Of a stretch of 64,000 nucleotides of DNA, positions 21,611-60,434 are shown in pieces. The position numbers were made by a program, and so were the translations under genes. The DNA is taken from NCBI GenBank assembly GCA_965261165.1, contig OZ253445.1, positions 1,369,082 to 1,433,081 on the forward strand, in the 5' to 3' direction. Every line of letters starts with the position of its first letter. Within the stretch, counting starts at the first letter, position 1. The stretch is from Gammaproteobacteria bacterium. Its GTDB lineage: Bacteria; Pseudomonadota; Gammaproteobacteria; Eutrophobiales; Eutrophobiaceae. Under the pieces are notes generated by a model that saw only the letters and a program-made list of their open reading frames with translations, was not told the origin of the DNA and searched no databases.

Positions 21611-21782
21611 AAATAATATTAGAGTTAAGTGACCGAGTGATTAGCGAGACCATGACTTGAGCGAATTGTTATGGTTATTTCTCATTTAATTTTTGATTCT
21701 AATGATTTAATGTCACCAACAACCCATAAGTTTTGAATCTTGTTGCCTTTGAAATGAAATAAGGCCAAACCATTCTTATGGT

Positions 21783-21980
21783 TTGATAGTATCAACCGTG
21801 ATTGCTGCCTCATTCGCATTTATGTTGCCAGTTGCTACATCTCCAAACGCAATTATTTCAGTAGTCGTAATGATGAAAGCGGATATATGGTTAAATCTTC
21901 TGGGTTCTGTATTGATAATATTTTTTGTCATGTTTCTGTTACCTACTGTTGGGGGGGATAGACATACAAGTATTTCCTGA
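21783..21980 (+). pseudogene. C-terminal remnant of an anion permease (ArsB/NhaD/DASS superfamily)
   Basis: Only the last roughly 60 codons are present. They contain the FMLPVATSPNAII signature (LPxATPPNA) typical of the last TM hairpin of DASS/ArsB-type permeases. There is no upstream coding continuation, and the start is a TTG by default. Confidence 0.45.
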
Positions 21981-21993
21981 AATATATGTAATG

Positions 21994-22146
21994 TAGAGAT
22001 CTTTGCGTAATTCACGCTGATTCTACCGAAACAGACAAAATTAAGACTATTCTAATAAACCTTAAAGATTATTCATCCATGTCCTAGGAAAAAGTCCTAG
22101 GAAATAATATCTTAAAAAAACTGCCCAAGGTTGGTTCGCAGATAAA
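21994..22146 (+). repeat. partial copy (copy C, about 150 bp) of noncoding repeat family R3
   Basis: It aligns with 60048..60200, with about 80-85% identity by eye: AGAGAyCTTTGCrTAATyCACrCTrATTCTACCGAAACAG...ACCTTAAAGATTATTCATCCAT...AAAAACTGCCCAAGGTTsGTTCGCAGATA. Confidence 0.7.
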
Positions 22147-22289: not shown

Positions 22290-22438
22290 TGTAGATGTAT
22301 TGTGTCTGAATGCTCGATAATGGATAAGTAATAACTAAAACACGCTCATTGAGGGGTTTTATGCTATTGCTGTGACGATTAAAGGAGAATTCTCGCAAAA
22401 TGAAACTGTTTCATACAAACTTTATAAATTAATGCTAT
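22290..22438 (-). repeat. inverted copy of 150-bp repeat family R2
   Basis: The reverse complement is identical, apart from about one mismatch, to 35850..35987. That sequence reads TTATAAAGTTTGTATGAAACAGTTTCATTTTGCGAGAATTCTCC...CATCTACA and contains the palindrome ATGAAAC-AG-GTTTCAT. Confidence 0.8.
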
Positions 22439-22684
22439 TGCCTATACGTCTTATTCAGTGGTTTTGAATGATGTGAAGGTTTCATGAAGAAAATTTTGCC
22501 TAAGCTTTCAGGAACTATCTTGCTTTAATCGCTTCGACTTTCTTATTCCATTTATCCAAGGCTTTCTGATAATAAACAAAGACGCAATTAACACAGTTGC
22601 GTTGACAACATTCAGATAATTCCGGCTCCCTTGGTTTGAGTGGGAGCCCATTTGAGTTATTAGCCTCTGCGGACATGTCGCCTT

Positions 22685-34377: not shown

Positions 34378-35808
34378 TCATAACACTGGAGAATTGATAG
34401 TCGGTGATACTTTATTTTTTCCCTCGCCATTTTCCCAATTATGCTGTTCATCAATTCTTTTAGTTTCAACATTTTTCCATTTCAGAATGTCATAATAGCG
34501 TCTAATATTTTCCACATAAGTCACAGGTTCGCCCCCTCTGGCATGGCCATGCTCAGTTTTCTGATGCCATTGCTCATCTGCTAACAAAGGTAATCTTTCT
34601 CTTACATCCGACCATTTATCAGGATCGTCGCCCTGAGATTGGGTTAATATTCTGGCATCTTCCAGATGCCCAAAACCTACATTGTAGGCAGCAAGAGCAA
34701 GCCATAGCCTATTCTCTCCCTGAACCCTTTCCGGTATTTTATTTATCATTTTAATCAGATAACGTGCACCCCCTAGAATGCTCTGTTCCGGATCGAGTCT
34801 GTTCTCAACACCCAATGATTTAGCTGTATCTGTTGTTAACATCATCAACCCTCGTACGCCTGTAGAAGATTTTGCTTCTGGATTCCAGTGGGATTCCTGA
34901 TAACTCATTGCTGCCAGGAGTAGCCAATCCAGTTCTGTTTCTCTGGCTGATTTTATAAATAGATTTCTGAATTTCGGCAGGTTGTTATGAATACTCTCTA
35001 TAAACACACGCGTATCAATATAATCAAAAGATTTTGCATGCCTGTAATAACGGTTGATTAATTTATCCAACGAACCATCATTATTAATGCGTTTGAAAAA
35101 ACTTTCAACCGCATTACCTAGTGAGCGATCATTATTTCGTCGATATACCCATGCGACAGGTAATTCCCCGGTGATATCGAAAGCAACCCTGACTTCAGGA
35201 AAGATATAACGATACATGGCTACCCAATTAGAATCCGCAATTGCAATTGGCGCATTTTCATCATTTACCATCTTGAGAATCTCTGTCATGCTCTTATTTT
35301 CAAGCACGCGCCAAGCAAGATCCGGATGATAAAAACTTATTTTTTTTAACAGTGTTTGATAAGACTCATCTTCACCAATAATGATCTCATCTTCTTTGAG
35401 GTATGCAATTGATCTTGGTTTTCTATTTTTCTGATGATAAATGAGCTGTCTCTTCGCCGTAATATAAGCTGGGGCATATTCAAGCGTATTGTTAGGGTAA
35501 TCAGATAAGGCTAATGCGGAAGAGCCTATATGGGCTTTATTATTATTGATCAGTGAAGACACATCATGCTTGTTTTCCGCAATAATTAAATTCAAATCGA
35601 GGTCCAGACTATCAGCAAACATGCTGGCCAATTCGTATTCAAGACCTTCGGCCTTACCATCTGAACCTTTATAGTAGGTTAGTGGACTTTCTACAGTGAC
35701 GAACCGTAACTCGCCAGACTCACGGATTTTTTCCAGTAGTGTCTTCTGATCACTACAAACCGAAAGCGCCAATACGCAGAAAATAAATAATAGAGACCTT
35801 TGCATCAT
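34378..35808 (-). CDS. mltF: membrane-bound lytic murein transglycosylase F
   Basis: The product has a signal peptide, a solute-binding-protein-like domain and an SLT domain (AAMSYQESHWNPEAKSSTGVRGLMMLT). Confidence 0.8.
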   Translation of the reverse strand: MMQRSLLFIFCVLALSVCSDQKTLLEKIRESGELRFVTVESPLTYYKGSDGKAEGLEYELASMFADSLDLDLNLIIAENKHDVSSLINNNKAHIGSSALALSDYPNNTLEYAPAYITAKRQLIYHQKNRKPRSIAYLKEDEIIIGEDESYQTLLKKISFYHPDLAWRVLENKSMTEILKMVNDENAPIAIADSNWVAMYRYIFPEVRVAFDITGELPVAWVYRRNNDRSLGNAVESFFKRINNDGSLDKLINRYYRHAKSFDYIDTRVFIESIHNNLPKFRNLFIKSARETELDWLLLAAMSYQESHWNPEAKSSTGVRGLMMLTTDTAKSLGVENRLDPEQSILGGARYLIKMINKIPERVQGENRLWLALAAYNVGFGHLEDARILTQSQGDDPDKWSDVRERLPLLADEQWHQKTEHGHARGGEPVTYVENIRRYYDILKWKNVETKRIDEQHNWENGEGKNKVSPTINSPVL

Positions 35809-35849
35809 TCAAAACCGCTGAATAAAGCGTACAAACAATATCATTATTT

Positions 35850-35987
35850 TTATAAAGTTTGTATGAAACAGTTTCATTTTGCGAGAATTCTCCTTTAATC
35901 GTCACAGCAATAGCATAAAACCCCTCAATGAGCGTGTTTTAGTTATTACTTATCCATTATCGAGCATTCAGACATAATACATCTACA
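35850..35987 (+). repeat. 150-bp repeat family R2 (forward copy), abutting the left end of IS relic copy 2
   Basis: It is near-identical to the reverse complement of 22290..22438. Confidence 0.8.
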
Positions 35988-35989
35988 AG

Positions 35990-37276
35990 GACTTATCGAT
36001 TAATAGCTCGAAACATGAGATGACCCGACATGCAAAACGGGTCTTATTGATGCGCAAACACCAACAAAATAGGTTGTTTATAACACTAGACGATCTTATA
36101 GCAGCAGAGCATCCCTAGCCTAAGCTTGAGGCCTTATTGTCATTCGATGAGCTGGCTAAACCTTAGGTTAAGCTCTATTCGGTTAAAGGTCATAAAGAAA
36201 AAGGGGTGGCCTTTGGCTTACGCGCCCTGGTGTTACAATTCATGGAAGATATGAGCGCTCGTGAAATGGAATGTTTTTTGCGAATGGATTTTTTTGCAAG
36301 AGAATGTTCTTTGCAAGAGAACATTTCTGGAACATGCTGTTACCCATTGGGCTTAGGAGAGAAGACCCCAGATCACAGTAATCTTGGTGATTGTCGAAAA
36401 CGTGATGATCTTCGAGAACGCTTGGACACAAAAAACTGAATGGCGATTCTTAACCGTGTTGGTGAAGAACTGAAGTCTATGGATTTAATGCGCCAAGTGT
36501 TGACCTTTGTTGCTGCCAGTCACTTAGGTGAGTCAGCTAAGCACTTGGGACGATAGAGATCGTGCCATTCAGGCCGGTTTAGAGAAGTTTAATCATAAGA
36601 CCGCTGAAACAATAACGGTTGCTCAGCAGGCACGCTTTGGTGGTAAGGGCGGTAACCAGTTTTGCTAGGGTGATAAAGAACACATATTGATTGCTAGGCG
36701 AAGTGGTTTAATCAATAAGATTGCGGCTACATCGGCGATAATAACCGATGCTGAAGGACTTGCTCACGTTTGCCCCACAGGAGGTGCTGTCTTTGGTGAT
36801 AAGGGGCACTGTGTGAACCTGGGCAAAACCACCATCAAGCGCAAGGGCTGTCATGATGCCACGATCAAGCCAGCCAATATGCAAGGCAAAGAGACTAAAT
36901 AAAGAGCGTTGGCTTGCAGCCATGCGTTCAGCCTATGAACGTGTCTTTGCTCACCGTAACCGGCGGGTTGGTTATCGTGGTTTGCAGAAGGTGCAATCTC
37001 AGTAGGCATCCGTGTACTGACTTTCAACCGCAAAAGAGTGATGACACTGGGTTTGAAGACATAGATAGATTGGGTTTTGAAGACATCAATTCAATACCTA
37101 CCCAAGGTAAATACCAAGGCAAATACTAGGGTAAATCCGCCTTCCATTTACCTAAAGGGCAGACCTAAGGCACTAATAGCCTAAAATAGCCCATTGGGCC
37201 TTAAATAAAGCGGACTTATTGTCGTTTATTTGAACAAATATTTGCATTTTGACATTGTTCTAGATTAACCGACAAG
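35990..37276 (+). mobile_element. IS5-family-like insertion sequence relic (copy 2), about 1.29 kb
   Basis: It is colinear and near-identical with 6552..7816, including the same frame disruptions. Its ends are GGACTTATCGATTAAT and ATTAACCGACAAGGCC. A few small indels separate it from copy 1, for example a GAATGTTCTTTGCAAGA duplication. Confidence 0.6.
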
Positions 37277-37373
37277 GCCATGAGGTGAGTAATAAGGTCA
37301 GTGATATATCGAGATAGATTGCCATTATTTTGGTTACGGTGGCATCTCATCTTCTAACGAAGTGATATAAGAA

Positions 37374-38711: not shown

Positions 38712-38882
38712 TAAAAAGATGGTTTTCAGGCGCGGAATGGGATAAGTTTCATGTATTAGCAGTTTTTGTGGCGGTTTCGGTTAGCTCTTCGCAATGTATA
38801 GCAGTAGGCATTCCGTGATGTTTCGTAAACAATATGCATGCTAATACATTGTTTTTTTATTAATTAATAAGGGGTTAAAGAA

Positions 38883-39086
38883 ATGGCTATGGGTACAGTG
38901 AAATGGTTTAACGATAGTAAAGGTTTCGGATTTATTACACCAGATGATGGCAGTGCAGATGTATTTGTTCATCATAGTTCTATTAATGCCGAAGGATTCA
39001 AGTCTCTCTCTGAAGGTCAGGCTGTAAGTTTTGATGTTGAGATGGGCGCTAAAGGTCCAAGTGCATCCAACGTGACTGCGCAATAG
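38883..39086 (+). CDS. cspA: cold-shock protein CspA family
   Basis: The product contains [15 protein letters not shown] (RNP1) and VFVHHS (RNP2). It is 67 aa. Confidence 0.95.
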
Positions 39087-39132
39087 AAGAATAGGCTAGA
39101 AGTTTTTAGCATATTTTTTAGCATATGAAAGA

Positions 39133-39157
39133 GGCCTCGTAATGTGAGGCTTTTTTT
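39133..39157 (+). terminator. Rho-independent terminator after cspA, possibly bidirectional
   Basis: The stem GAGGCCTC...GAGGC is followed by TTTTTTT. It lies between convergent cspA and the GGDEF gene. Confidence 0.55.
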
Positions 39158-39220
39158 ATGGAGAATAAATATTGAGGTCGAGCGCCTGATTAAGCAGCCT
39201 ATGATTTATTCTTGAGAAAT

Positions 39221-40012: not shown

Positions 40013-40634
40013 TGAAAGACCCCCTCCCTAATCAAAAGAAATTTGAATCTGTATTTTAAAATCTTAACTCGTAAGCAACAGATAATAACACTATTAATGT
40101 GACGATATTATCACAGATATGTCTCATTCTGACCTAACAAAATGTTGTAAATTGAATTTAGGGCAAGCTCGTTAATTACTGATATTGCAATGGCATCTTA
40201 CTACATATTTAAAGTAGCGAGAACAATTCCGCTTAATGAAATGGAAAACGGTATTGTGATTTTTAAGTTGAAATTCATTTAGACGGGAAAATAGTTAAAC
40301 AGGATATGGGTTAGCCGCGTTTCAAATAATTCATTCATTGGTGGGCAATGTATATGACTCATGCGCCCTGATGTAATTAGCTGTGTTTTTAATTGAGAGC
40401 TTCGCATAAATCAACTTAGCGACAAAATGTTCCTGATTTTTTGTCAAAAACCGGTCATTAGCTTGTTAAAAACGACATTTTTGTCGCAATAGGAACAGGT
40501 TTAATCTCTCTTCTGTCAACATTTTGAATTATGTAAAGGTCTCTAATTATTTTATTTAAAATTATTTCAATGATAAATCAATGTTACATTATAATGTATA
40601 ATTTCCTTATTTAAATCAAACTTTTATATCTTTT

Positions 40635-41702
40635 ATGACCTCTGAATTAAAAAATGATCGGTTTATCCGGGCATTACTCCGACAATCTGTTGATGTCACG
40701 CCTGTCTGGATGATGCGGCAGGCTGGCCGTTACTTACCTGAGTATAGGAAGACTCGAAAACGGGCTGGTAATTTCTTAAATTTGTGTAAAACACCAGAGT
40801 TGGCTTGCGAGATCGCCTTACAACCACTTGAGCGCTACTCATTGGATGCTGCAATCCTTTTTTCAGATATCCTGACCATTCCTGATGCGATGGGGCTTGG
40901 ATTGAACCTTATTGAGAAAGTTGGCCCTCAGTTTGATAAACCGGTGAGGACAGCAAGTGAAATTAGAGTCTTATCAGTCCCTGATCCTGAATCCGATCTA
41001 GGTTATGTGATGGATGCAGTCAGGCTAATTCGTAAAGAATTGGATGGTCGTGTGCCGTTGATTGGTTTCTCCGGCAGTCCGTGGACATTGGCAACCTATA
41101 TGGTTGAGGGTGGGCCGACCAAGGAATTTGGCCTAGTTAAAGGGTTGATGTATGACGACCCTGCGTCTATGTATCATTTATTAGATGTTCTGGCAGATTC
41201 CATTGTTTTGTATCTGAATGCACAGATTGCAGCAGGCGCTCAAGCGGTCATGATTTTTGATACCTGGGGTGGAATTTTAACTCCGGCAAGTTACCAACAA
41301 TTTTCCTTGCAATACATGCAGAAGATAGTGAGTCAGCTTGATCGAGAGTATGATGGACAAGTGATACCTGTAACATTGTTTACCAAAGGTGGTGGTGACT
41401 GGATCAAGGATATTGCAGCCACAGGATGTGATGCTATTGGCGTTGATTGGAGCAAAAACATGAATGATGCCCGTTCTGAAGTTGGTAATCAGGTGGCTTT
41501 GCAGGGTAATCTTGATCCCTGCGTTTTATATGCTTCTCCCGAAGTGATTAAACGGGAAATTGCTACAGTACTGGAAAGTTTTGGGCACGGGAATGGCCAT
41601 GTATTTAATCTCGGACATGGCATACATCAACATATTGATCCTGAAAATGTTGCTGTTTTTGTCAACGCAGTGCATGAATTGAGTGGGCAGTATCACACAT
41701 AA
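40635..41702 (+). CDS. hemE: uroporphyrinogen decarboxylase
   Basis: The product contains [31 protein letters not shown]. Confidence 0.95.
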
Positions 41703-42846: not shown

Positions 42847-44130
42847 ATGAACTCCAACCCTGCCCCTCATCTAACAACGGCACTGGCTGGTCCATTACAC
42901 CAGGTTGAACGACATTTGGTTGAACACCAGACAGACATCGAGTCATGGTTTCGCAACCAGTGGCGAATAACGCCCGCACCTTTTTATGCTTCTGTTGATT
43001 TGCGCAATGCTGGATATAAGTTGGCACCGGTAGATACGAATCTTTTCCCGGCAGGTTTTAATAATCTCAATCCAGCATTCGAAGCATTGTGTATACAAGC
43101 GGTTCAATTAGCCGTTGAGCATTTGCCCCATCAAATAGACAGGGTTTTACTCATTCCTGAGAATCATACTCGCAATCTCTTTTACCTAGAAAATTTGGCG
43201 ACCCTCCAGCAAATCATAGAGAAAGCAGGCTTTGAGGTGAAATTGGGCTCAATGATGGAGGATATGTCAGAACCGCTCACCATTGAATTGGAATCAGGTA
43301 AATCAGTGCTTCTGCAGCCATTACAAAGAAGTAGAGACAAGGTATTCGTCGGTGATTTTATTCCTGAATTAATTATTCTGAATAATGACATTTCCTCAGG
43401 GCGCCCCGAAATCCTTGAGTCTCTAGGGCAGACAGTAACACCTAGGCTTGGCTTAGGATGGTCTAATCGCTTGAAATCCGTTTATTTCAGACACTATCAG
43501 AAAACAGCCGCCGAATTTAGTGAGCATATTGGCATTGATTCCTGGTTTATTGATCCCTTATTCAGAAACTGTGGCGAGATTGATTTCATGCAGCGTGAAG
43601 GTGGTTCTTGTCTGAAAAAAAATGTTGATGCCCTGCTAAAAGAGGTACAGATGAAATATGATGAGTACGAGATAAAATGTCAGCCTTATGTCATCGTTAA
43701 AGCAGATAGCGGTACCTATGGTATGGGCATCATGACCGTTAATAGCGTTGATGATATTACCGAGTTAAATCGTAAGCAGCGTACTCGCATGTCAACGATT
43801 AAAGAGGGTCAGAAAGTAAGCAAAGTAATTATTCAGGAAGGCATCTATACCCATGAAACCTGGGGGAGGGAGGAAACGGTAGCTGAGCCTGTTGTCTACA
43901 CGATTGATCACAATGTAGTTGGAGGATTTTATCGGGTTCATGATGTTCGTGCCGCGAACGAGAATCTCAACTCGCCTGGGATGCGTTTTGAGCCTTTGGC
44001 ATTTGACGATTGCTGTATTTCTCCTGAAAGAAACCTAGGTGCTGATGCTCATCCAAATCGTTTTTATGCCTATGGTGTGATCGCTAGGCTGGCATCGCTG
44101 GCAGCAGCGAGAGAGTCTGTGGCGCTTTGA
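42847..44130 (+). CDS. gshA: glutamate--cysteine ligase of the rare proteobacterial GshA type (PF08886-like)
   Basis: The product is 427 aa. I recall the motif FYASVDLRNAGYKLAPVDTNLFPAGFNNL as diagnostic of the Acidithiobacillus-type GshA family; this is a recollection, not a database result. Confidence 0.5.
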   Translation: MNSNPAPHLTTALAGPLHQVERHLVEHQTDIESWFRNQWRITPAPFYASVDLRNAGYKLAPVDTNLFPAGFNNLNPAFEALCIQAVQLAVEHLPHQIDRVLLIPENHTRNLFYLENLATLQQIIEKAGFEVKLGSMMEDMSEPLTIELESGKSVLLQPLQRSRDKVFVGDFIPELIILNNDISSGRPEILESLGQTVTPRLGLGWSNRLKSVYFRHYQKTAAEFSEHIGIDSWFIDPLFRNCGEIDFMQREGGSCLKKNVDALLKEVQMKYDEYEIKCQPYVIVKADSGTYGMGIMTVNSVDDITELNRKQRTRMSTIKEGQKVSKVIIQEGIYTHETWGREETVAEPVVYTIDHNVVGGFYRVHDVRAANENLNSPGMRFEPLAFDDCCISPERNLGADAHPNRFYAYGVIARLASLAAARESVAL

Positions 44131-44151
44131 ATCTGGAACTGCTGAATTAGC

Positions 44152-44886
44152 TTATAAATGTTTAAGCACTTTTCTGATGTGACTGGCATGACGTCTACTT
44201 ACCGGTAGTCGTGTTTCTGTCCCTTGCAATTTGATGCAGAGGCCGCCTTCCCTGTCTTTTTCCAGTGCCGCAATATATTTGAGCGCCACCAGTGTATTAC
44301 GGTGGATACGTGTGAATTTTGAGGAAAATTCCTGTTCAAGAGATTTGAGTGAATCATCAAGCAATAACTCCCCTTCAGACCAGACCACTGCGACATATTT
44401 TTGATCTGCTTTCAGATAGTAAATTTTCTCTATGGGAATGATTTGCAGGTTTCCATGAACGATTGTGCTCAGGTGAGAGCGGCTATTATCCGACCTAGGA
44501 TTGTCTCTTAATTCGTTAATATTGATTCTATTCATAGTTTTGGCTCTATCAATAGCTTCTTGCAAGCGTTCCTTTCGAATTGGTTTCATTAAATAATCGA
44601 CCGCATGCGCATCGAAGGCGTCCAGAGCATAGTCTTGATAAGCGGTGGTAAAAATAATTGCAGGAGGCGCTTCCAGTCCTGCAAGGTGGTGTGCAACTTC
44701 GAGACCATCCATCACTGGCATACGAATATCCAATAATATAAGTTCTGGCGATTCTTTACTGATTAGCCTGAGTGCAGCAATACCGTTTTCAGCCTCCGAG
44801 ATTGAAAAATCAGCGTTTAATTCGGAAAGCAGGTTCACCAGCCGTTCTCTGGCCAGCATTTCGTCATCAACGATCAGTATTTTCAT
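44152..44886 (-). CDS. algR: LytTR-family response regulator (AlgR-like)
   Basis: The product has a receiver domain (MKILIVDDE...LLDIRMP) and a C-terminal LytTR DNA-binding domain. It is adjacent to algZ and argH as in Pseudomonas. Confidence 0.8.
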   Translation of the reverse strand: MKILIVDDEMLARERLVNLLSELNADFSISEAENGIAALRLISKESPELILLDIRMPVMDGLEVAHHLAGLEAPPAIIFTTAYQDYALDAFDAHAVDYLMKPIRKERLQEAIDRAKTMNRININELRDNPRSDNSRSHLSTIVHGNLQIIPIEKIYYLKADQKYVAVVWSEGELLLDDSLKSLEQEFSSKFTRIHRNTLVALKYIAALEKDREGGLCIKLQGTETRLPVSRRHASHIRKVLKHL

Positions 44887-45943
44887 AGGGATAGGGCCAA
44901 ATTATTTTGGTGATGTAATGGCAATCTTCCACCTGTGTCAGCAATCGTCCCTTGCCCCCATAATATGCCGACAGACGTTGTCGAATATTATCCTGTGCCA
45001 TTTGATTACCTTTTTGATGTTCAGCACTTTCTCTGGAAGGCAGCGGATTCTCAATCGTGATAATTATTTCATTTGATGATAATCGGCCTAGAATATGAAT
45101 CACACCACCCTCAGGCAAGGGCTCGATACCATGATAAATTGCATTCTCAATGACAGGTTGAAGTATCAGATTGGGGAGTTGTGCATGTTCAGGTAAATCA
45201 TCCGTTTCCCAGACGGTTTTCAATCTGTCGCCGAAGCGATGAGACTCGATACGCAGGTAGCGTTTACACAGTGAGATTTCTTCGGCCACGGTAGACATGC
45301 GTTTGGCTTCCTGTAGACTAACGCGAAATAAATCAGCCATATCTTCGGTGGCCTCTTCAGCGAGTTTTGGAGCTTTACGTGTTAGGCTGGCAATCGTATT
45401 CATGCAATTGAAAAGGAAATGTGGCCGTATGCGAGATTGTAGCGCCTGTACCCGTGCTTCGGCCTCTGATTCAATATTTTTCCGCCATTGATGCTGTATA
45501 TAAAAATAGCGCAATGAAAGTGCGCTAACAATAGCGCTGATGCTCATACATTCGAAGAGAAAGGCGCCATGTCCTAGAGGTCTGTCCGTCAGTGCTGGTT
45601 TGACATGGAACATCCACCAAGCCAGTTCTGTGATCAGCAGAGATATCAGCAGGGTCAAGCAATAACTCAGGCTGGCCGCCCAAAAATCGGATAGGCGGCT
45701 CAAGTGGTTTCTGCTCAGACATAGCGCGGCTGCGCAAGACAAGGCAATCCATTGTATAAAGAGTGAGTATAAGGCCAGATCTATAATGCGCTCCTGCGCT
45801 AGTGTTGAGTGCGTTAGTGTTAGAACAATAGCGAGTAATTCGCCGAGGAGAAGCACGACAAAAAGCATACGGACATCACAGAAATCCGGTAGAAAAGAAT
45901 GTGCTAGCTGTCGGCTCATTGGCATAAAATAATGAATTTTCAA
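44867..45943 (-). CDS. algZ: sensor histidine kinase of the LytS/AlgZ/FimS type
   Basis: The product has a multi-TM N-terminus and a His kinase internal region (HPHFLFNCMNTIASL) plus an HATPase-like C-terminus. It overlaps the algR start. Confidence 0.75.
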   Translation of the reverse strand: MKIHYFMPMSRQLAHSFLPDFCDVRMLFVVLLLGELLAIVLTLTHSTLAQERIIDLALYSLFIQWIALSCAAALCLSRNHLSRLSDFWAASLSYCLTLLISLLITELAWWMFHVKPALTDRPLGHGAFLFECMSISAIVSALSLRYFYIQHQWRKNIESEAEARVQALQSRIRPHFLFNCMNTIASLTRKAPKLAEEATEDMADLFRVSLQEAKRMSTVAEEISLCKRYLRIESHRFGDRLKTVWETDDLPEHAQLPNLILQPVIENAIYHGIEPLPEGGVIHILGRLSSNEIIITIENPLPSRESAEHQKGNQMAQDNIRQRLSAYYGGKGRLLTQVEDCHYITKIIWPYPYENTDR

Positions 45944-46011
45944 AGACAGCTTACGTTATACTGCTGGCTATTATCAAACATAGAGTCGAGAATACTGGTT
46001 GTACGTAAAAA

Positions 46012-47475
46012 GTGACCAATAAAACCAAGCAAGATAAGGGCAAAAAAAGCAAACTCAGTCAAGAAAAGCCCACTAAAGATAAGCTTTGGGGCGGGCGTTT
46101 CTCTGCATCTACTAATGCTTTTGTAGAACAGTTCACACAGTCTGTTTCTTACGATCAACGCCTCTACCATTATGATATTACGGGGTCGGTAGCTCATGTC
46201 AGCATGTTGGCAAAGGTCGGTGTACTTTCACGCCAGGAATCTAAACAAATTATTACAGGCCTGCAATCAATCGAATTGGAGATTGAACAAGGAAGTTTTA
46301 AGTGGGATAGCACGCTGGAAGATGTGCATATGAATATTGAAACAGCACTGGTTGCTCATGTTGGTGATGTTGGAAAAAAACTGCATACAGGGCGTTCACG
46401 GAATGAGCAGATCGCGACAGATATTCGTCTTTATTTGCGTGATGAAGTGGCCGGCATTCAGTCCTTGTTGGCTAATGTTATGTCAGCTTTACTGGACCTC
46501 GCTGAATGCGAGGCTGAAACAATCATGCCTGGTTTTACTCATATGCAAACGGCACAACCTGTGACATTTGGTCATCACATGATGGCTTGGTTTGAAATGC
46601 TGTATCGGGATTGCCAGCGTCTCGTTGATTGTCATACGCGTATCAATGTGATGCCGCTGGGTTCTGCAGCACTGGCTGGCACCAGTTATCCTATTGATCG
46701 GCAGTACATGGCTGAATTATTAAATTTTCCAGCCGTGACGAATAATTCTCTGGATGCCGTCAGTGATCGGGATTTTGCAATCGAGTTCAGCAGTTGTTCC
46801 GCCTTGATCATGATGCATTTGTCGCGTTTCTCGGAAGAATTGGTGCTATGGATGACGCAACAATTTAGTTTTATTGATTTGGGCGATGCTTGGTGTACGG
46901 GATCTTCAATCATGCCGCAGAAAAAAAATCCGGATATCCCTGAATTGGTTCGCGGCAAAACTGCGCGGGTGTACGGTCATTTGATGGGCTTGTTAACATT
47001 AATGAAGTCTCAACCATTAGCCTACAACCGGGATAACCAGGAAGATAAGGAATCTTTATTTGATGTGATAGACACTATCAAAAGCTGTTTGCATGCTTAC
47101 GCTGGTTTGGTGCCTGAAATAGCGGTGAACAGGGAACGCATGCGTGAAGCGGCCATGCAAGGTTTTACCACAGCAACTGATCTGGCAGACTATTTGGTAC
47201 GTAAAGATATTGCTTTCCGGGATGCACATGCGGTGGTGGGACAATCCGTACAGTATGCCATTGAGGCAGGAAAGGATTTATCTGAATTAACCCTAAATGA
47301 ATTACAGCAATTCAGTGAAGTCATAGAGGATGATGTCTTTGGCTGTCTGAGCTTGGAAGGCTCAGTTGCGGCGCGTGCTCATCAGGGAGGTACCGCCCCT
47401 GAACAAGTTTATAAGGCTATACATAATGGACGCGAACGTCTTGGGTCGGTTCTCATATACGGGGATTCTTGGTAA
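46012..47475 (+). CDS. argH: argininosuccinate lyase
   Basis: The product contains WGGRFS, the fumarate lyase signature [12 protein letters not shown] and a Lys-rich N-terminal extension. Confidence 0.9.
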
Positions 47476-50400
47476 TGAGTAAATTGATTAAGCTTTTATT
47501 GGGCGGAACTATTCTGGTTGGATTGCTGTTCGGCATGGTTGTTCTTGCTGCTGTGATGTACTTCGACCCGAACGATCATAAAGATAGAATCATTGCCAAG
47601 GTTGAAGAAGAAACCGGACGTACGCTCAAGCTAGAAGGGGATATCAGTATTAGCTATTACCCATGGCTAGGGCTTGAAGTTAGCGGTGTGACCGTGGGTA
47701 ATGCAGAAGGTTTTGGAGATGCTCCTTTTATACATGCTGATGTCGTAGCTTTGCGTATTAAAACTATGCTGTTACTAAAAAAACAATATGAACTGGATAC
47801 CTTGAAGCTACACGGTGTCGAGATCAATCTGACAAAAAACAAGGAAGGGGTGAGCAACTGGGACGATCTTGTGCGCGAAGAAAAGGATGATTCGGAAAAG
47901 CAGGGGCATATTAAACTGGCTGCTGTGGTATTAGGCGGTGTTGATATAAAAGACGCTCGATTCACTTGGGATGATCAGAGTGCAGGTCAAACATTCAAGA
48001 TCAGCGGGATGAATATGTCTACCGGAGAGCTAATTTTTGGCGAACCTATCGATATCAAGATGAATTTAAAGGCAGAGTCCAATAAGCCTGCGATTAGCGC
48101 GGATGTAAATATGCAGGGAACTGCCTCGTACGATCTTGATGCAGAAACTTACGCGTTTAACCCAATAGGGGTGACAGCAAAACTAACAGGAAAAAACCTC
48201 CCTAAGGAGAAAGCTGAGCTTAAATTTAATACGGGCATCTTGTTTGATCTGAAAAGTGATGCCGCATCGATTGACAATCTGACATTTAATGGTCTTGGGG
48301 TACTCATCAAGGCGCAATTAAATGTCAGTGGCGTCAAATCAGGTAGGCCGACGACTGCAGGGCAATTATCGGTTGTTGGAGATGACTTGGCGCACCTGTT
48401 TAAGGTTGCAGGGATCGAACCTTTGGCGAGTCAGTTATCGAAATTAAAAGACCGAGCTTTCAATCTGCAAACCAGTCTGAGTGCTGATATGGGGAAAGGC
48501 AATGTTGCTATCTCTGATCTGAATGCGAAGTTAATTGGTGCTGTGATCGAGGGTCAGGTTGTGGTCAGTAATATGGGATCAGACACGCCTGCATTGAAGG
48601 GAAAGTTAAACGCTTCATGCCCAGATTTGCCAATCTTATTACAGGTTGCAGGCCAGTTTGAGGGTGGTGATGATCCTAAACTCAGAACCTATGGTGAGAA
48701 ATTATCTAAAGCCGCCAACAAAAAATTTGAAGTTAATACGGAATTTGACGCAGATCTTGCCTCTGGTCATATCAATGTGCCTACTTTGTCATTGAAAACC
48801 TTGGGAGTCACTATTGATGGCCACTTGAAGGCTAATGCCATCAACAGTAATAGTAGCAATATTGACGGTAAGTTATTACTGCGAGGTGAAAAATTGACCG
48901 ATGTGCTTGCTGCTCTGGGGCAACATGGTCTGGCGCAGAATTTAAGTACGGTCTCTATGGATGTTGCCGTTCAGGGCAGCCGAAACGATATCAAAATGAG
49001 CCCACTCAAAGCTGAAGCAATTTTTACCGGAAAACAAGTACCTGATTCACCTGCAAAGATTACACTGAATGCTGATACAAAAATAAATTTGGACAAACAG
49101 GCATTATCGATTACGAGAATGGCAGTGACTGGACTTGGCCTGAATGTTAAAGCTGACCTAAATGTCAGTAAATTTTTCTCGGAAAGCCCGAGCGTGAAAG
49201 GTAAGCTTGATGCCCGTGGAAAAGATCTGGGCATAATATTCAGGCTCTTTGGTAACGAGCCCCTTGCAAAACAGATAAACGACCTCAAAAAAAAATCCTT
49301 TGCAGTTAAAATGAATTTTGATGCGAACATGAGAGAAGGGAATATAAATCTACCTTCTCTATCTGCGGAAGGGTTGGGGCTGACAGTTAATGGAAAGATG
49401 CTTGCGACAGATTTTAGTGGCGGCAAAGGTCACGTTGATGGCCAACTAGCGATAAAGGGTGAAGATCTATCTGCCGTTCTAACGGCTTTTGATCAAGGTG
49501 CTCTCGCAAATGTGTTAAAGAAAATTTCAATCGATATTGGTGTCAAAGGTGCTAATAACAACATCAATCTGAATCCGCTAAATATCAGAGCCACCGTTGC
49601 TGGAAAAGATATGCCGAACTTTCCCGTTGATCTGACTATGACAGCAAATACAAAAATGAACTTGGACAAGCAGACACTCTCCGTTAATAACATAAAATTA
49701 AATGGCTTGGGTCTGGACTTAAAGGCGAATATCAGTGCAAATCAAGTGACAGATAAACCAACATTTAATGGCGATCTCACGGTGTCTGAATTTAATCTTC
49801 GCAAGTTAATGCAGCAGATGAAACAAGAAGCTCCCATCACGGCAGATAAGAAGGTGCTGACTAAAGTTGCTTTGCAGACAAAATTTTCAGGTTCCGCTAA
49901 CAGTATTGAATTCAAAGACTTTGCTTTATTGCTGGATGATACAAACTTAAAAGGTAACCTTACGGTCAAACATTTTACGCAGCCGAGATTCGATTTTGGT
50001 ATCGGCATCGATAATATCAACGCAGATAGATATTTGCCGCCATCAGTAAAGGCAGGAGAAAAACAGAAAGCTGAAGAGGCAGCAACGCCCGCAGCTGACT
50101 TACCGCTAGAAACATTAAGAAAACTCAATGGCAAAGGCGAGATGCTAATTGGAAAACTAGCCTACTCAAATCTTGGTTTAAGTAATATCAAGTTAGGTAT
50201 CAATGCCAAGGATGGGCTTGTTAAGCTAGATCCGATAGTGGCTGATCTTTATCAAGGTAAATATAATGGCATTATCACGGTTGATGCCAGAGGAAACTCA
50301 TTAGAAGTTAAGCAAGAGACGCAACTGAGTGGCGTGCAAATTGAGCCACTCCTGAGAGACCACACTCAGTCTCCAGAAAGCCAACTTGCCGGAGCCGCCA

Positions 50401-51116
50401 ATATTAGCATTAAGGTGTCATCAAAAGGAAAGAATACACTCCAACTTAAACATGGGTTGAGTGGACAGGCCAAACTTGCCGTAACAAAAGGTATTTTGCG
50501 TGGTATTGATATCAGGAAAACTCTGGAACAAGCGGAGGTGTTGCTTGAGAGCAAGCGACTTGGGACAGTGAAGCAAGGTGGTGAAACCCGATTCGAGCAA
50601 TTAACGGGCACATTGAATATCAAGGATGGTGTGGTTAAAAATGATGATCTGTTAATGACGGCGCCTGGTTTCAGGGTTAATGGTGGTGTTGATAAAAGAG
50701 ACACGCTCGGGAATCTTCGTAATAACTCTATTAAATATAACCTGAGCGTTGCTGTCGTCGAAGAAAACGTAGTGCGCGGCGAAGAAAATTATAATATTGG
50801 TGGTTATGTGATTCCTATTAGATGCCGTGGCTCATTGGACGATCTTGCCGGAGCCTGTAAACCTGATTATGGGAAGCTTCTGAGTGCGGCTGTTCAAAAA
50901 GGTGCGCTCGATAAATTAGGGGAAGTAATTAATATAGGCATTTCAGGTAAAAACGAATCAACTGTGGATTCTGGCACAACAAGCACTGGCACAACAAGCA
51001 CTGGCACAACTACGACAAAAGAATCATCTCAGCAGGAAGTAACACCAGAGTCGAAAGATCCTGCAAAGGAACTGATCGATAAAGCGCTGGAAGGTGTCTT
51101 CGATAAACTATTTTAG
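47469..51116 (+). CDS. AsmA-family outer-membrane biogenesis protein, unusually long (1215 aa) with internal module repeats
   Basis: It has an N-terminal TM anchor plus an AsmA N-domain ([30 protein letters not shown]). Several roughly 150-200-aa segments recur ([15 protein letters not shown]...; ..[16 protein letters not shown]..). It carries an AsmA-like C-terminal region and a (GTTST)x3 low-complexity tail encoded by a 15-bp tandem DNA repeat at about 50975..51020. Confidence 0.75.
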
Positions 51117-52159
51117 TGACCAATTTGTTCTCAGATAAGTTAGTTGCATGGTTTGATATTTGTGGCAGACATGATTTGCCCTGGCAACAGGAACCAGCTC
51201 CTTATCAAGTCTGGCTTTCCGAAATCATGTTGCAACAAACACAAGTGGCGACTGTCATTCCCTATTTCAATCATTTTATAGAACAATTTCCCGATATAAA
51301 GCTACTTGCGAATGCAAACATTGATGAGGTTCTAAGTCTTTGGACTGGTCTTGGGTACTATGCGCGAGGGCGGAATCTACATCATGCTGCGAAAATAATT
51401 TGTAATGATTTTGATGGGAATCTTCCTGCCGATAAAGAAAAGCTCTTAACATTACCTGGCATTGGACGCTCAACTGCTGGCGCAATCATGGCGTTGGCTT
51501 TCGGACAACACCATGTCATTCTTGATGGTAATGTAAAACGAGTACTGTGCCGTTTTTATGCAGTGAATGGTTGGCCAGGAAAGCCGGCAGTGGAAAAACA
51601 TTTGTGGCAATTAGCAGAGGATCTTACTCCGAAAAAGGATGTTGCTAAATACACTCAGGCGATAATGGATTTGGGTGCAACCGTATGTACACGGTCAAAG
51701 CCACAATGTAATATTTGTCCTGTATCAAAAGAGTGTCTTGCCAGAAAGCAAGAATTACAACATAAATACCCAGTATCCAAACCAAAAAAAATAATTCCCT
51801 TACGCAAGATAATTTTCCTCTTATTGGAAAACAAGGACGGTGAAATATTGATTCAAAGGCGTCCTGCAGCAGGGATATGGGGTGGCTTATGGTGCTTTCC
51901 GGAATGCTCGCTTGATGATGATATTGAAAAATGGCTGCTGACTGAAACGGGTCTTAGTGGAACTATTATCAGAAAATTATCGGTGATAAAACATACGTTA
52001 ACGCATTTCCGTATGGAAATTTTACCCATCCATTTAAAAGTAAAACGATGTAATAATGTAAAAGAGAAGGACGATCAGCAGTGGTGTTTAACTGATGGTG
52101 CCTTAAAATTTGGCATTCCAACACCAGTAAAGAAAATACTAAAGATAATCGCAGAATAA
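51116..52159 (+). CDS. mutY: A/G-specific adenine DNA glycosylase
   Basis: The product has an HhH-GPD domain and a 4Fe-4S cluster loop (CTRSKPQCNICPVSKEC), plus a C-terminal NUDIX-like domain. Confidence 0.9.
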   Translation: MTNLFSDKLVAWFDICGRHDLPWQQEPAPYQVWLSEIMLQQTQVATVIPYFNHFIEQFPDIKLLANANIDEVLSLWTGLGYYARGRNLHHAAKIICNDFDGNLPADKEKLLTLPGIGRSTAGAIMALAFGQHHVILDGNVKRVLCRFYAVNGWPGKPAVEKHLWQLAEDLTPKKDVAKYTQAIMDLGATVCTRSKPQCNICPVSKECLARKQELQHKYPVSKPKKIIPLRKIIFLLLENKDGEILIQRRPAAGIWGGLWCFPECSLDDDIEKWLLTETGLSGTIIRKLSVIKHTLTHFRMEILPIHLKVKRCNNVKEKDDQQWCLTDGALKFGIPTPVKKILKIIAE

Positions 52160-52220
52160 CTAACATAAACACAGCTATACCTATGGATGACTCTGGGTAT
52201 AGGCAATGATGGGGTGACTA

Positions 52221-52490
52221 ATGAGTAGAATAGTGAAGTGTGTAAAGCTGAATAAAGAAGCGCAAGGACTTAAGGTTGCACCCTATCCTGGTGAGCTGGG
52301 TAAAAGAATTTATCAGAATGTTTCCCAAGAGGCATGGCAAGAATGGTTGCAGCATCAAACTATGTTGATTAATGAATATCGTTTAACGCCGATTGAGCCC
52401 AAGGCACGTAAATTTCTGGAAGAAGAAATGGAGAAATTCTTTTTTGGTTCTGGTTCCAGGCGACCTGATGAATTCGTTGCACCTGAATAA
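52221..52490 (+). CDS. yggX: Fe(2+)-trafficking protein YggX
   Basis: The 89-aa product begins [17 protein letters not shown] and contains [14 protein letters not shown]. It follows mutY as in E. coli. Confidence 0.9.
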
Positions 52491-56963: not shown

Positions 56964-57033
56964 AAATTAATATAAGCGGTTACTAACACATAGGCTGCTA
57001 ATTCTGAGTGATGAAGTGTCGGAAAACAAGGGC

Positions 57034-57308
57034 ATGTATGAGTCCACCACATATTGCACTTCCCGCGTGGCTGAACATTGTCTTGGTCTGTTTCCAATTG
57101 ATAATCTCTCTGTGCAGCATCTATTTCAAACAATGATTTATATCCTACTTAAAGGCATATCTGCGAACGAACCTTGGGCAGTTTTTTCCAGGAATTTTTT
57201 TTCAAGACTTTAATTTCCAAGACATGACGAAATAATCTTTAAGGTCTTTAGAATGGTCTTATTTTACCTGTTTTGGTAGAATTAGTGTGAATTATGCAAA
57301 AGGTCTCT
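57034..57308 (-). repeat. repeat family R3, copy A (inverted relative to copy B)
   Basis: Its reverse complement aligns with 60048..60340, with about 85-90% identity over shared blocks by eye. Two internal indel blocks separate the copies. Confidence 0.75.
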
Positions 57309-57333
57309 ATGTATTTTTTTTGATGTATTTTTT

Positions 57334-58038
57334 TTGAAAATACATACAATAACGCCCATGGCAAAAATCAGTTATTTTTCACGAATCTTTGGCAACTCCC
57401 CAGTCTCACCACTGCAGAAACATATTGCTAGTGTTATCGCCTGTGTCGAGCAACTCATTCCTTATTTTGAGACTGTATTTAAAGGTGATTGGGATGAGGC
57501 AACAAAGATTCGGGAAAAACTTGCCTCACTTGAAAGTGAGGCCGATGATACCAAGAATGAATTGCGCATGAGTCTACCCAAAAATCTATTCATGCCTATT
57601 GATCGAAGAGATATTCTTGAGCTTCTGAATATGCAGGATCTGATTGCGAATCGAGCCAAGGATATTTCTGGCCTTACCCTTGGCCGCAAAATGGCTATCC
57701 CAAATGTGCTTGCAGATGACTTTATGGCATTTCTGCATCGTTGCATCGATGCCACAAAGCAAGCCCAAATTGCCATCAACGAACTGGATGGATTGGTTGT
57801 CACAGGATTCCGTGGCGACGAAGTGACTCGTGTTAAAAAGATGATTGTTGAGCTCCACGTTATCGAGAAAGAAACCGACGAGATTCAGGTCAAGCTTCGG
57901 GCCTCATTATTTGCAATTGAAAATGAATTACCCCCTATCGATGTCATGTTTATATACAAAATCATCGAGTGGATTGGTGATCTTGCTGATACGTCACAGA
58001 GTACTGGCAACCGTCTGCAGTTAATGCTTGCCAAATAA
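57334..58038 (+). CDS. DUF47 / PhoU-like (TIGR00153) phosphate transport regulator-type protein
   Basis: The 234-aa product has the helical-bundle PhoU-like pattern (EADDTKNELRMSL, IDRRDILELL). It is the usual partner located immediately upstream of a PiT transporter. An alternative start lies at 57358. Confidence 0.75.
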   Translation: MKIHTITPMAKISYFSRIFGNSPVSPLQKHIASVIACVEQLIPYFETVFKGDWDEATKIREKLASLESEADDTKNELRMSLPKNLFMPIDRRDILELLNMQDLIANRAKDISGLTLGRKMAIPNVLADDFMAFLHRCIDATKQAQIAINELDGLVVTGFRGDEVTRVKKMIVELHVIEKETDEIQVKLRASLFAIENELPPIDVMFIYKIIEWIGDLADTSQSTGNRLQLMLAK

Positions 58039-58083
58039 TTTCACAATATATTTAACCCTCTTATAATAAATATAGTCGTAGCT

Positions 58084-59334
58084 ATGGAACATGCAACACT
58101 ACTACTAATATTTGCTGCTGTATTCGGTTTGTTTATGGCCTGGGGGATTGGTGCTAATGACGTTGCTAATGCCATGGCAACTTCAGTTGGCTCCAGAGCG
58201 CTTACCATCAAATCTGCTATTTTAGTTGCGGCAATATTTGAATTCTCAGGTGCTTTCCTTGCTGGCGGGGAAGTTACTTCAACCATCAGAAAAGGAATAG
58301 TCGATGCTTCTTCTCTAGCTAGCTCTCCTGAAATTTTAGTCTATGGGATGTTGGCTTCATTACTTGCTGCGGGCACTTGGTTATTGATCGCTTCTCGCTA
58401 TGGACTCCCTGTATCAACGACACATTCTATTGTTGGCGCTATCGTTGGCTTTGCTGCAATTGTCGTTGGTGTTGATGCCGTTAAATGGGGGAAAGTTGGC
58501 TCAATCGCAGTGAGTTGGGTGGTTTCACCGGTACTCGCCGGGGTCCTTTCTTACTTTTTATATCGTAGCGTTCAGAAACTCATCCTAGACACAACGAACC
58601 CATTTAAATATGCACAAAGATATGTCCCTTTCTATATTTTTTTAACTGGTTTTATAATTTCCCTTGTAACCTTCTTTAAAGGTTTGAAACATGTCGGACT
58701 TGAGATGTCACAACAGGAATGCTACCTATCCGCTATGTTTATTGGCTTGCTCGCCGCGACCATTGGCAAGATATTGATCAGCCGCATTTCACAAGAAACT
58801 GGAAAAGGAAACAGCGATCATTTTCATAGCGTTGAAAAAATTTTTGGTATTCTCATGATCTTTACTGCATGTGCCATGGCATTTGCACACGGCTCGAATG
58901 ATGTCGCGAATGCAGTTGGTCCTGTCGCTACTGTGGTTAGCATTGTGAATAATGATGGAATGATTGGGCAAAAATCATCCCTGCCAACCTGGGTTTTATT
59001 TTTAGGCGCAACAGGTATTGTGATTGGTCTGATGATGTATGGACATAAGGTGATCGCTACCGTTGGCAAAAGTATCACTGAGCTCACGCCAAGCCGTGGT
59101 TTCTGCGGAGAATTAGCCGCATCCACCACTGTCGTTCTTGCCTCGGGGACAGGTATTCCTATTTCAACCACGCACACATTAGTCGGTGCGGTCCTCGGCG
59201 TTGGTATGGCGCGCGGTATTTCTGCGCTGAATCTACATGTGATTGGCTCGATCTTTATGTCATGGATAATCACACTTCCAGCCGGCGCGATTCTGGCGAT
59301 TATTTTCTTTTACATCCTTAAAATGCTGCTCTAG
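58084..59334 (+). CDS. pit: inorganic phosphate transporter, PiT family
   Basis: The product has duplicated GANDVANAM/GSNDVANAVGP signature motifs and about 10 TM segments. Confidence 0.9.
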   Translation: MEHATLLLIFAAVFGLFMAWGIGANDVANAMATSVGSRALTIKSAILVAAIFEFSGAFLAGGEVTSTIRKGIVDASSLASSPEILVYGMLASLLAAGTWLLIASRYGLPVSTTHSIVGAIVGFAAIVVGVDAVKWGKVGSIAVSWVVSPVLAGVLSYFLYRSVQKLILDTTNPFKYAQRYVPFYIFLTGFIISLVTFFKGLKHVGLEMSQQECYLSAMFIGLLAATIGKILISRISQETGKGNSDHFHSVEKIFGILMIFTACAMAFAHGSNDVANAVGPVATVVSIVNNDGMIGQKSSLPTWVLFLGATGIVIGLMMYGHKVIATVGKSITELTPSRGFCGELAASTTVVLASGTGIPISTTHTLVGAVLGVGMARGISALNLHVIGSIFMSWIITLPAGAILAIIFFYILKMLL

Positions 59335-59984
59335 ATCCAGTAAGCAGTTTTTGTCATCACCTTCGAACACAGTCGCATCAATTTTTTAACCTGCGCTGGT
59401 AATTCCGAAGCGCCCGCATGGTATGCGACACTGGCATGATGGGCTTCATCATCGCGCATTTGTTGTAGAATCGCCCGACTTCGTAAATCTTTTTCAGTAA
59501 TCTCCTGTAAGTGCTTATCCAAATGCGCCACCACCTGTTCCTCGGTTTCAACCACAAAGCCTAGGTTCCATTTATCACCAATCAAACCCGCTAAAGAGCC
59601 AATGCTAAGTGAACCAAGAAACCAGAAATGCCCAAGAAGACTTGTGCGCCCACCCAGCTCACGTAAACGCTCTTCACACCAAACCAGATGATCAATCTCT
59701 TCCTCTGCCGAATGCTTCATCGCCTCCCGCACCTGACTGTCTCGCGCAGTCAGTGCCTGAGCCCTATACAGTGCCTGAGCAGAGACCTCACCCGCGTGGT
59801 TAACCCGCATAAGACCTTCGCTTTGCCGACGCTCGGTTTCTGACAGCACAGAATGCCCAACTTTTTCGGCAGGATAGGTACGTAATGTCTGTTGTGGCTG
59901 AACCATGAATGCCTCTAAATGCTCATCAATCGTATTGATGAAACCGTCCAGAACACTGTAATTTCGTTCACTCATACCGGACAA
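59331..59984 (-). CDS. coq7: demethoxyubiquinone hydroxylase Coq7 (di-iron carboxylate family)
   Basis: The product is near-colinear with Pseudomonas Coq7 (LMRVNHAGEVSAQALYRAQALTAR, EEEIDHLVWCEERL, LAKVMTKTAYWI). Confidence 0.85.
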   Translation of the reverse strand: MSGMSERNYSVLDGFINTIDEHLEAFMVQPQQTLRTYPAEKVGHSVLSETERRQSEGLMRVNHAGEVSAQALYRAQALTARDSQVREAMKHSAEEEIDHLVWCEERLRELGGRTSLLGHFWFLGSLSIGSLAGLIGDKWNLGFVVETEEQVVAHLDKHLQEITEKDLRSRAILQQMRDDEAHHASVAYHAGASELPAQVKKLMRLCSKVMTKTAYWI

Positions 59985-60047
59985 TACGTCATTCTTCCCA
60001 ATTTTTCATAGGGTGATTCACGGTAATTTCCAGTTTTTAGAATAAAC

Positions 60048-60340
60048 AGAGACCTTTGCATAATCCACACTAATTCTACCGAAACAGGTAAAATAAGACC
60101 ATTCTAAAAACCTTAAAGATTATTCATCCATATACTGGGAAAAACTGCCCAAGGTTCGTTCGCAGATATGCCTTTAGTAGGATATAAATCATTGTTTGAA
60201 CTAGACGCTGTACAGAGAGATTGTCAATTGAAAACAGATTAAAACAATGTTCAGCCATCTTTATGCTTCTCGGCATCCCCGCCCTAAAGAAGTGCGGCTT
60301 CAGCCGCGCAGAAAGTGCAATATGTGGTGGACTCATACAT
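60048..60340 (+). repeat. repeat family R3, copy B, in the coq7 / deaD intergenic region
   Basis: See copies A and C. It contains the shared core AAAAACTGCCCAAGGTTCGTTCGCAGATATGCCTTTAGTAGGATATAAATCATTGTTTGAA and a copy-specific insertion of about 57 nt with a GCGGCttcaGCCGC hairpin. Confidence 0.75.
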
Positions 60341-60434
60341 AGGCTACATTTCCAAGTAGTATGGTATACAATACGCGCCCATTTCCATAGCTTCCTGATA
60401 AACCTCGGCGGCTGATATAAGGCAGATAACTCTG

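Follow-up and report, generated by a model that had tools for sequence, protein, structure and literature searches.

Correia elements of Neisseria and Rickettsia palindromic elements (RPEs) are intergenic, multi-copy and non-autonomous repeats with two inverted termini and defined target duplications, and neighboring genes can obtain promoters or start codons from their ends. In composite transposons such as Tn10 and Tn5, two inverted copies of one element enclose cargo. In the repeat-rich genome of the Cardinium endosymbiont of Oedothorax gibbosus, a miniature inverted-repeat transposable element (MITE), MITECca01, coexists with a 250-bp eroded remnant of the insertion sequence (IS) ISCca4 in which a small part of the transposase gene survives (PMC9769881). 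In genomes that are IS-rich or belong to host-restricted bacteria, such as that of Amoebophilus asiaticus, repeated and largely decayed element copies occupy synteny breakpoints (PMC3196728), and IS-driven genome restructuring has been reproduced in the laboratory (PMC12065110). Here we describe R3, a non-coding repeat of about 0.3 kb in a 64-kb stretch (the window) of the genome of an uncultured gammaproteobacterium (contig OZ253445.1, positions 1,369,082 to 1,433,081). An inverted pair of R3 copies brackets a block that encodes a DUF47/PiT phosphate transporter pair and coq7. We consider it likely that the R3 copies are decayed transposable-element relics lying on the seams of this relocated block, and that recombination between dispersed copies brought the arrangement about. 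As in IS-rich genomes, decayed copies sit at breakpoints with no evidence of current transposition (PMC3196728). R3 differs from those cases in that fragments of ~0.3 kb, rather than full IS copies, occupy the junctions and in that the rearranged unit is a small housekeeping block.

Copy A of R3 lies at 57034..57308 on the minus strand and copy B, inverted relative to A, at 60048..60340 on the plus strand. An initial annotation had described a repeat of ~275-290 bp at these positions, and alignment and BLASTN showed its coordinates to be right to the base; the full copies measure 275-293 bp. The ~150-bp truncated copy that it had also reported was found at 21995..22146 (copy C, plus strand), 38 kb from B. 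Copy C retains a canonical terminus and ~150 nt and lies between two gene 3' ends, on the 3' side of dapB (a dapB-side fragment) and next to the 3' end of cysG; this is no promoter region. Over 244 ungapped columns the identity of A and B is 91.0%, and the longest stretch without a mismatch measures 37 nt. BLASTN E-values are 2e-54 for A against B and 2e-30 for A against C, and nhmmer recovers each of the three copies at E = 1e-47 or better. A profile built from the three copies has full matches in the window at A, B and C only, or three copies per 64 kb.

The copies differ by the kind of copy-specific inserts that had been proposed. A 49-nt segment with the direct repeat GGCTGAA at its bounds is present in B and absent from A, and a 29-nt segment is present in A and C and absent from B. 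The most conserved core, TATCTGCGAACGAACCTTGGGCAGTTTTT (57158..57186 in copy A), belongs to a 98% repeat block. No open reading frame (ORF) is conserved between the copies, which agrees with the earlier assessment of the short ORFs inside them (57016..57213 and 60221..60415), and R3 has no match in Pfam or NCBIfam. The exact core CTGCGAACNAACCTTGGGCAGTTTT had no match in species-representative genomes or JGI metagenomes, and ~1.4 Mb of relatives' loci searched with the R3 profile yielded no copy.

The pair brackets exactly 57309..60047 (2739 bp), which comprises the native DUF47 leader, DUF47/PhoU_div (57358-58038, plus strand), PiT (58084-59334, plus strand), coq7 (59334-59975, minus strand) and the native coq7 leader. 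The outward neighbors are prfA-hemA (minus strand) on one side and deaD (plus strand) on the other. These Pfam assignments bear out the earlier description of a 2.7-kb DUF47/PiT/coq7 segment with hemA and deaD outside it. The closest relatives are uncultured gammaproteobacteria, with identities of at most 82% for PiT and at most 91% for HemA and for DeaD. PiT, DeaD, QueC and DUF47 are each singletons at 90% identity clustering; HemA, which falls in a cluster of 22 members with at least 90% identity, is the exception among the proteins looked up. The DUF47-PiT-coq7 block is kept in three relatives (L002, L003 and L007), where it stands between a 461-aa gene and a pair of genes of 152 and 131 aa. 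The window has none of these three neighbor genes, and neither hemA nor deaD flanks the block in the three relatives.

The outer sides were compared with eight relatives' hemA loci (L082-L084 and L146-L150) and four relatives' deaD loci (L085-L088), the comparison with related genomes that the initial annotation had proposed. R3 is absent from these loci, and homology stops at the R3 edges. In all eight hemA loci the gene is preceded by TPR-lolB-ispE-prs-rplY-pth-ychF. Nucleotide homology runs through hemA and ~70 nt of its leader and ends at 57031-57034 in seven of the eight, 57034 being the first base of copy A; in the eighth (L149) it ends at 56990, where that contig ends. On the other side, homology to the four deaD loci begins at 60339-60344, adjoining the last base of copy B. 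The native hemA leader (56964..57033, minus strand) carries a promoter-like TTGTTT-N17-CAGAAT and is conserved in relatives without R3, as is the native deaD leader (60341..60434, plus strand) in the four deaD loci without R3. An SLT-domain gene lies upstream of deaD in three of these four loci, and L088 instead has a histidine kinase and response regulators. A link between R3 and this SLT-domain gene was considered and dropped, the gene being a different paralogue with 26-27% identity to the MltF of the window.

The inner sides are equally sharp. A native DUF47 leader of 49 nt, conserved with L007 and L002, directly follows the end of A, and a native coq7 leader of 72 nt, conserved with L007, directly follows the end of B. 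Each R3 copy thus exactly fills the gap between two native leaders of different ancestral loci. hemA and deaD are adjacent in none of the relatives examined and are ~234 kb apart in the sole relative that has both loci on one contig. Because the hemA, DUF47, coq7 and deaD loci all have other neighbors in relatives, the order hemA / R3 / block / R3 / deaD is derived, and the block was relocated in this lineage. An identical contig (L001, ENA ERZ26051151), which comes from the same strain and so offers no further comparison, spans A, the block and B in the orientation of the window; its assembly breaks at window position 56904, inside hemA and 130 bp from copy A.

The similarities among the copies bear on how the pair arose. 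Over 121 shared columns, A-B and B-C identities are both 90.1% and A-C identity is 85.1%, and informative sites divide into nine that group A with B, nine that group B with C and three that group A with C. B thus resembles A no more than it resembles the distant copy C, a result that speaks against both gene conversion and a recent inverted duplication at the locus. Nor does it fit the fallback offered in the initial annotation, that the pair might be merely an old local duplication.

We infer recombination between dispersed copies as the most likely mechanism, the one that asks for the fewest coincidences. Copies of the element would have landed immediately ahead of the hemA, DUF47, coq7 and deaD core promoters, and homologous recombination between dispersed copies would then have re-joined different loci. 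The DUF47-PiT-coq7 block would in this way have been cut from its ancestral neighborhood and come to lie between hemA and deaD. Every gene would have kept its own promoter, a hybrid copy would have been left at each junction, and the R3 copies would then have decayed independently. The R3 fragments probably mediated the rearrangement themselves. The pair marks a past rearrangement, and any inversion of the block that it supports today would be occasional and RecA-dependent, the pair being a poor substrate at best. The locus offers a base-precise example of short decayed mobile-element fragments marking the seams of a chromosomal rearrangement in an uncultured gammaproteobacterium.

The identity of R3 as mobile-element sequence comes from its inner end. 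The 20-nt inner end, TGAATTATGCAAAGGTCTCT, proved in a metagenome scan, the decisive result of the analysis, to be the terminal inverted repeat (TIR) of a MITE family. The scan with this 20-mer returned 55 metagenome stretches, 52 of them from one JGI sample, Ga0164315. The resulting MITE-rich set (L091-L145, from Ga0164315 and three other samples; 402 kb of selected contigs) contains 147 relaxed termini and 45 complete elements, which are 72-186 bp long and fall into size classes of 72, ~98, 161-164 and 172-186 bp. The TIRs are ~24 nt long, the 5-bp A+T-rich target-site duplications are identical in 30 of the 45 elements, and all but two of the 45 are intergenic. These features make it a genuine MITE family, one that is common in an uncultured gammaproteobacterium related to this one. 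A literature search on the terminus sequence and the sample accessions turned up no account of it, 1.42 Mb of sequence from other relatives lacks the terminus, and BLASTN of R3, the MITE consensus and the 5' end of a longer family element described below found no match in plasmid and phage collections. The family definition (terminus GAGACCTTTGCATAATTCA, 5-bp A+T-rich duplications and classes between 72 and 186 bp) should be useful for annotating related metagenome-assembled genomes and should help explain assembly breaks in them. Many contigs of the Ga0164315 set end inside an element.

Family termini recur across the window. The sense of the element in copy A is the minus strand, with the canonical family terminus at 57283..57308 (…GTGAATTATGCAAAAGGTCTCT, with one extra A), and the copy is read inward from 57308. 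In copy B the canonical terminus is at 60048 and faces coq7. The B terminus agrees with the metagenome consensus at 19 of 20 positions and is the best match in the window to a position weight matrix (PWM) of the family terminus. The ends of B, of the unrelated repeat R2 and of copy C rank first in that scan, followed by both ends of an element at 40395..40543, which are both within the top five. The inner ~20 nt of R3, TGAAT[T/G]ATGCAAAGGTCTCT, also ends R2 and also occurs at 40525-40544. This last occurrence, near 40.5 kb, was considered as a solo motif left by a deleted R3 copy, which it is not; it proved to belong to a complete MITE. That MITE (40395..40543) is degenerate and 149 bp long, has a perfect target-site duplication (TAATT at 40390-40394 and 40544-40548) and an nhmmer E-value of 1.3e-8, and lies 91 nt upstream of hemE (URO-D, 40635-41702). 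Members of the family adjoin the tetrapyrrole genes hemA, hemE and cysG, an association that we judged coincidental, the relics being at varied distances and in varied orientations.

The metagenome elements of 72-186 bp and the element at 40395..40543 fit the classical MITE definition; R3 itself does not. Its similarity to the short MITEs is limited to the terminus (20-40 nt), and its profile finds nothing beyond the terminus in the 402 kb of MITE-rich contigs. The suggestion that R3 is a MITE-like mobile repeat therefore stands in part: the inner end is a genuine TIR of a MITE family, and the repeat as a whole has one canonical terminus, no matching target-site duplication and no significant inverted ends. 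Among the four roles put forward by the initial annotation it is the closest to the truth.

R3 instead aligns with a longer member of the family. At three metagenome loci (L111, L123 and L134) the terminus is followed by ~70 nt and then by ATG TCT TGG AAA, the start of an ORF that begins MSWK[S/N]T[T/A]QHS… and continues …SFAD. The contigs of these loci end, or a MITE interrupts them, within 120-135 nt of the terminus; a nested MITE insertion into the longer member lies at L111:10582-10767. Read inward from its terminus, R3 is colinear with this element through terminus, leader and first codons (MSWK...SFAD). In copy A, CATGTCTTGGAAA (57214..57226, minus strand) is the decayed ORF start and matches the longer element at 13 of 13 positions, ATG TCT TGG AAA encoding MSWK. 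The core TATCTGCGAACGAACCTTGGGCAGTTTTT and TTCGCAGATAT, the latter present in all R3 copies, are likewise colinear with it. On the sense strand the R3 core reads …KTAQGSFADM… in a decayed frame, against …K(S/N)T(T/A)QHSFADI… in the longer element. Semi-global alignment to the longer element gave z-scores of 2.0 for A, 2.5 for B and 3.9 for C. Because R3 has a single canonical terminus and is colinear inward with the longer member, it is best read as an eroded, non-coding, non-autonomous terminal fragment or deletion derivative of a longer family element.

The Cardinium genome offers a close parallel. There, as here, short non-coding repeats share a TIR with a longer element, the family is lineage-restricted, and MITEs occur together with a remnant in which part of the transposase gene survives (PMC9769881). 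The Cardinium case differs in having a known parent IS, a member of the IS982 family, and MITEs with an inverted repeat at each end (PMC9769881). For R3, in contrast, no parent transposase was recovered, a single terminus is canonical, and the part of the ORF that is kept is the 5' rather than the 3' part.

Several observations weigh against this account of R3 and of the pair. The homology between R3 and the longer element is only moderately significant, and R3 has no second canonical terminus. In a TIR alignment test, 397 of 500 shuffles of A and 33 of 500 shuffles of B scored at least as high as the real ends, and the outer ends rank 253rd-261st of 127,942 window positions against the family terminus PWM, so that the outer end is at best a very degenerate terminus. 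The sequences flanking R3 do not match as a target-site duplication (TGTAT/TATGT for A, 3/5; TGTAT/TGTTT for B, 4/5), and the outer flanks are G+C-rich, unlike the A+T-rich targets of the family. With no second canonical terminus, no matching target-site duplication and G+C-rich outer flanks, the multiplication of R3 as a unit is left unexplained. A and B moreover have a common outer end, including ATGTAT, which simple truncation would not give twice. No family transposase was identified with Pfam, NCBIfam or exhaustive phmmer; phmmer with the decayed R3 frame returned two spurious repetitive proteins only. Finally, the data cover 64 kb of a 2.13-Mb genome, so that the R3 copy count is that of the window only, and the recombination model places its reciprocal junctions beyond it.

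Other origins for the pair were weighed against the same evidence. Like Tn10 and Tn5, the locus has two inverted copies of one element around a 2.7-kb cargo, both novel junctions lie at the outer ends of the element and the family demonstrably transposes, all of which would suit a composite-transposon-like event in which the R3 pair, together with the genes that it encloses, moved into a hemA-deaD intergenic region as one unit with a transposase acting in trans. Unlike in Tn10 and Tn5, however, the functional-looking termini point inward, toward the cargo, no transposase is present and no target duplication surrounds the unit. The outer ends, the ones that such a move would need, are non-canonical, and the flanks are AGGGC on the left and AGGCT on the right, both G+C-rich and not a direct repeat. 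A prior extra rearrangement that fused intact hemA and deaD leaders would also be needed, since the two loci are non-adjacent in relatives. With termini that face the cargo and no direct repeat around the unit, we regard such a move as unlikely. It is less probable still that the pair and its cargo form a present or recent mobilizable or invertible cassette, which would call for an undiscovered family transposase recognizing the non-canonical outer ends; if this were true, housekeeping genes (the phosphate transporter pair and coq7) would be moved or flipped as a unit.

The initial annotation had also raised the possibility of inversion. An inverted repeat of ~290 bp with 91% identity and a 37-nt identical run could, given RecA minimal processing segments, support rare homologous inversion. 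That the pair functions as recombination sites flipping the PiT/coq7 block between two states is nonetheless very doubtful: Pfam detected no recombinase domain in the block or among the 29 ORFs of the window that were scanned, no homogenization of A and B is seen, and inversion would alter nothing because each gene carries its own leader along. The sole other assembly has the same orientation, although both assemblies may go back to the same data. Duplication of one R3 copy in inverted orientation across the block, through an error in replication or repair, would fit copies that are 2.7 kb apart and have both ends exactly in common, yet we give it very little credence. B is as near to C, 38 kb away, as to A; the native leaders at the two outer edges differ and belong to loci that lie far from each other in relatives; and further family members are scattered across the window.

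We find equally implausible a duplicated regulatory module or small RNA gene acting on the flanking genes. Both full copies do lie in divergent promoter regions, and their central 124 nt are 92% identical, with a T-run after a weak hairpin. Against this, Rfam gave no match to the R3 copies at gathering thresholds or in permissive E-value mode, and neither strand of A or B shows excess folding stability relative to shuffled sequence (z = +0.41, +0.43, -0.80 and -0.96). Promoter and terminator scans gave no site that A and B share at corresponding positions, and the terminator-like hairpin is not conserved in B. The conserved core is explained as a decayed ORF start, relatives without R3 keep native leaders with promoter-like motifs, and copy C is in a 3'-3' intergenic region. 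The idea of a duplicated 5'-UTR module is thus not supported, all four flanking genes having retained leaders conserved with relatives that lack R3 and C lying between 3' ends; nor is that of a small RNA family, given the lack of an Rfam match, z-scores of +0.4 to -1.0 and copies that differ by indels. The R3 copies would not be needed for expression of the flanking genes, and the locus reveals no new regulatory or RNA-based mechanism. Recombination between dispersed relics remains the reading that we favor.

Additional mobile-element traces occur elsewhere in the window. One copy of R2 lies at 35793..35987 (minus strand); its final ~50 nt correspond to the right end of the MITE family described above (E = 6e-4), and its terminus is fused to a 5'-truncated mltF. 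The second copy, at 22290..22483 (plus strand), has a degenerate terminus and is 144 bp from R3 copy C. This inverted pair is a mosaic, 99% identical over the distal 139 nt and 81% over the 58 nt at the terminus. The 36-kb copy stops 2 nt away from the end of the IS copy R1b; the 22-kb copy stops at the corresponding base, where no IS adjoins it, a pattern that is unexplained.

The MltF-like lipoprotein gene (34378-35808) has its start (MMQRSLLFIFCVLALSVC|S) inside the MITE-family terminus at 35792-35808 (minus strand). Its orthologues begin MNDKNYKEKWGQKSNIQRLFLSI… and are ~15 residues longer at the N-terminus, and nucleotide homology to them ends at 35790, 2 nt from the terminus. As at the R3 seams, a family terminus here abuts native sequence. 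The shared motif was considered as native mltF coding sequence and rejected, orthologue homology ending 2 nt short of it and the orthologues being longer. The end of a mobile element appears to supply the present mltF start codon (ATG), which resembles the supply of start codons by the ends of Correia elements and RPEs.

R1 is present as two direct copies (6552-7814 and 35989-37279) that are 92% identical and represent a decayed IS of ~1.27 kb with 16-bp terminal inverted repeats (GGMCTTGTCGGTTAAT). No ORF of at least 80 aa is left, and frame fragments match DUF772, DDE_Tnp_1_6 and an NCBIfam IS1182-family transposase at E-values of 6e-5 to 7e-4, below curated cut-offs. ATGAGG flanks copy 1 on the left and copy 2 on the right, which suggests flank exchange by recombination.

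An open stretch at 21612-21980 (plus strand), which ends …VIAASFAFMLPVATSPNAIISVV… after several in-frame stops, abuts the terminus of R3 copy C. Pfam gave no match to this stretch, which we take to resemble a C-terminal fragment of an anion/DASS-type transporter and which is possibly a pseudogene remnant. At 38770-39158 (plus strand), Rfam reports the cspA thermoregulator RF01766 with 61.5 bits (E = 4e-13), below its gathering score of 78. The window also contains a 1215-aa AsmA-family ORF (47469-51116) without a counterpart at that position in L084, with which the window is collinear at 44024-47546 and 51128-52490.

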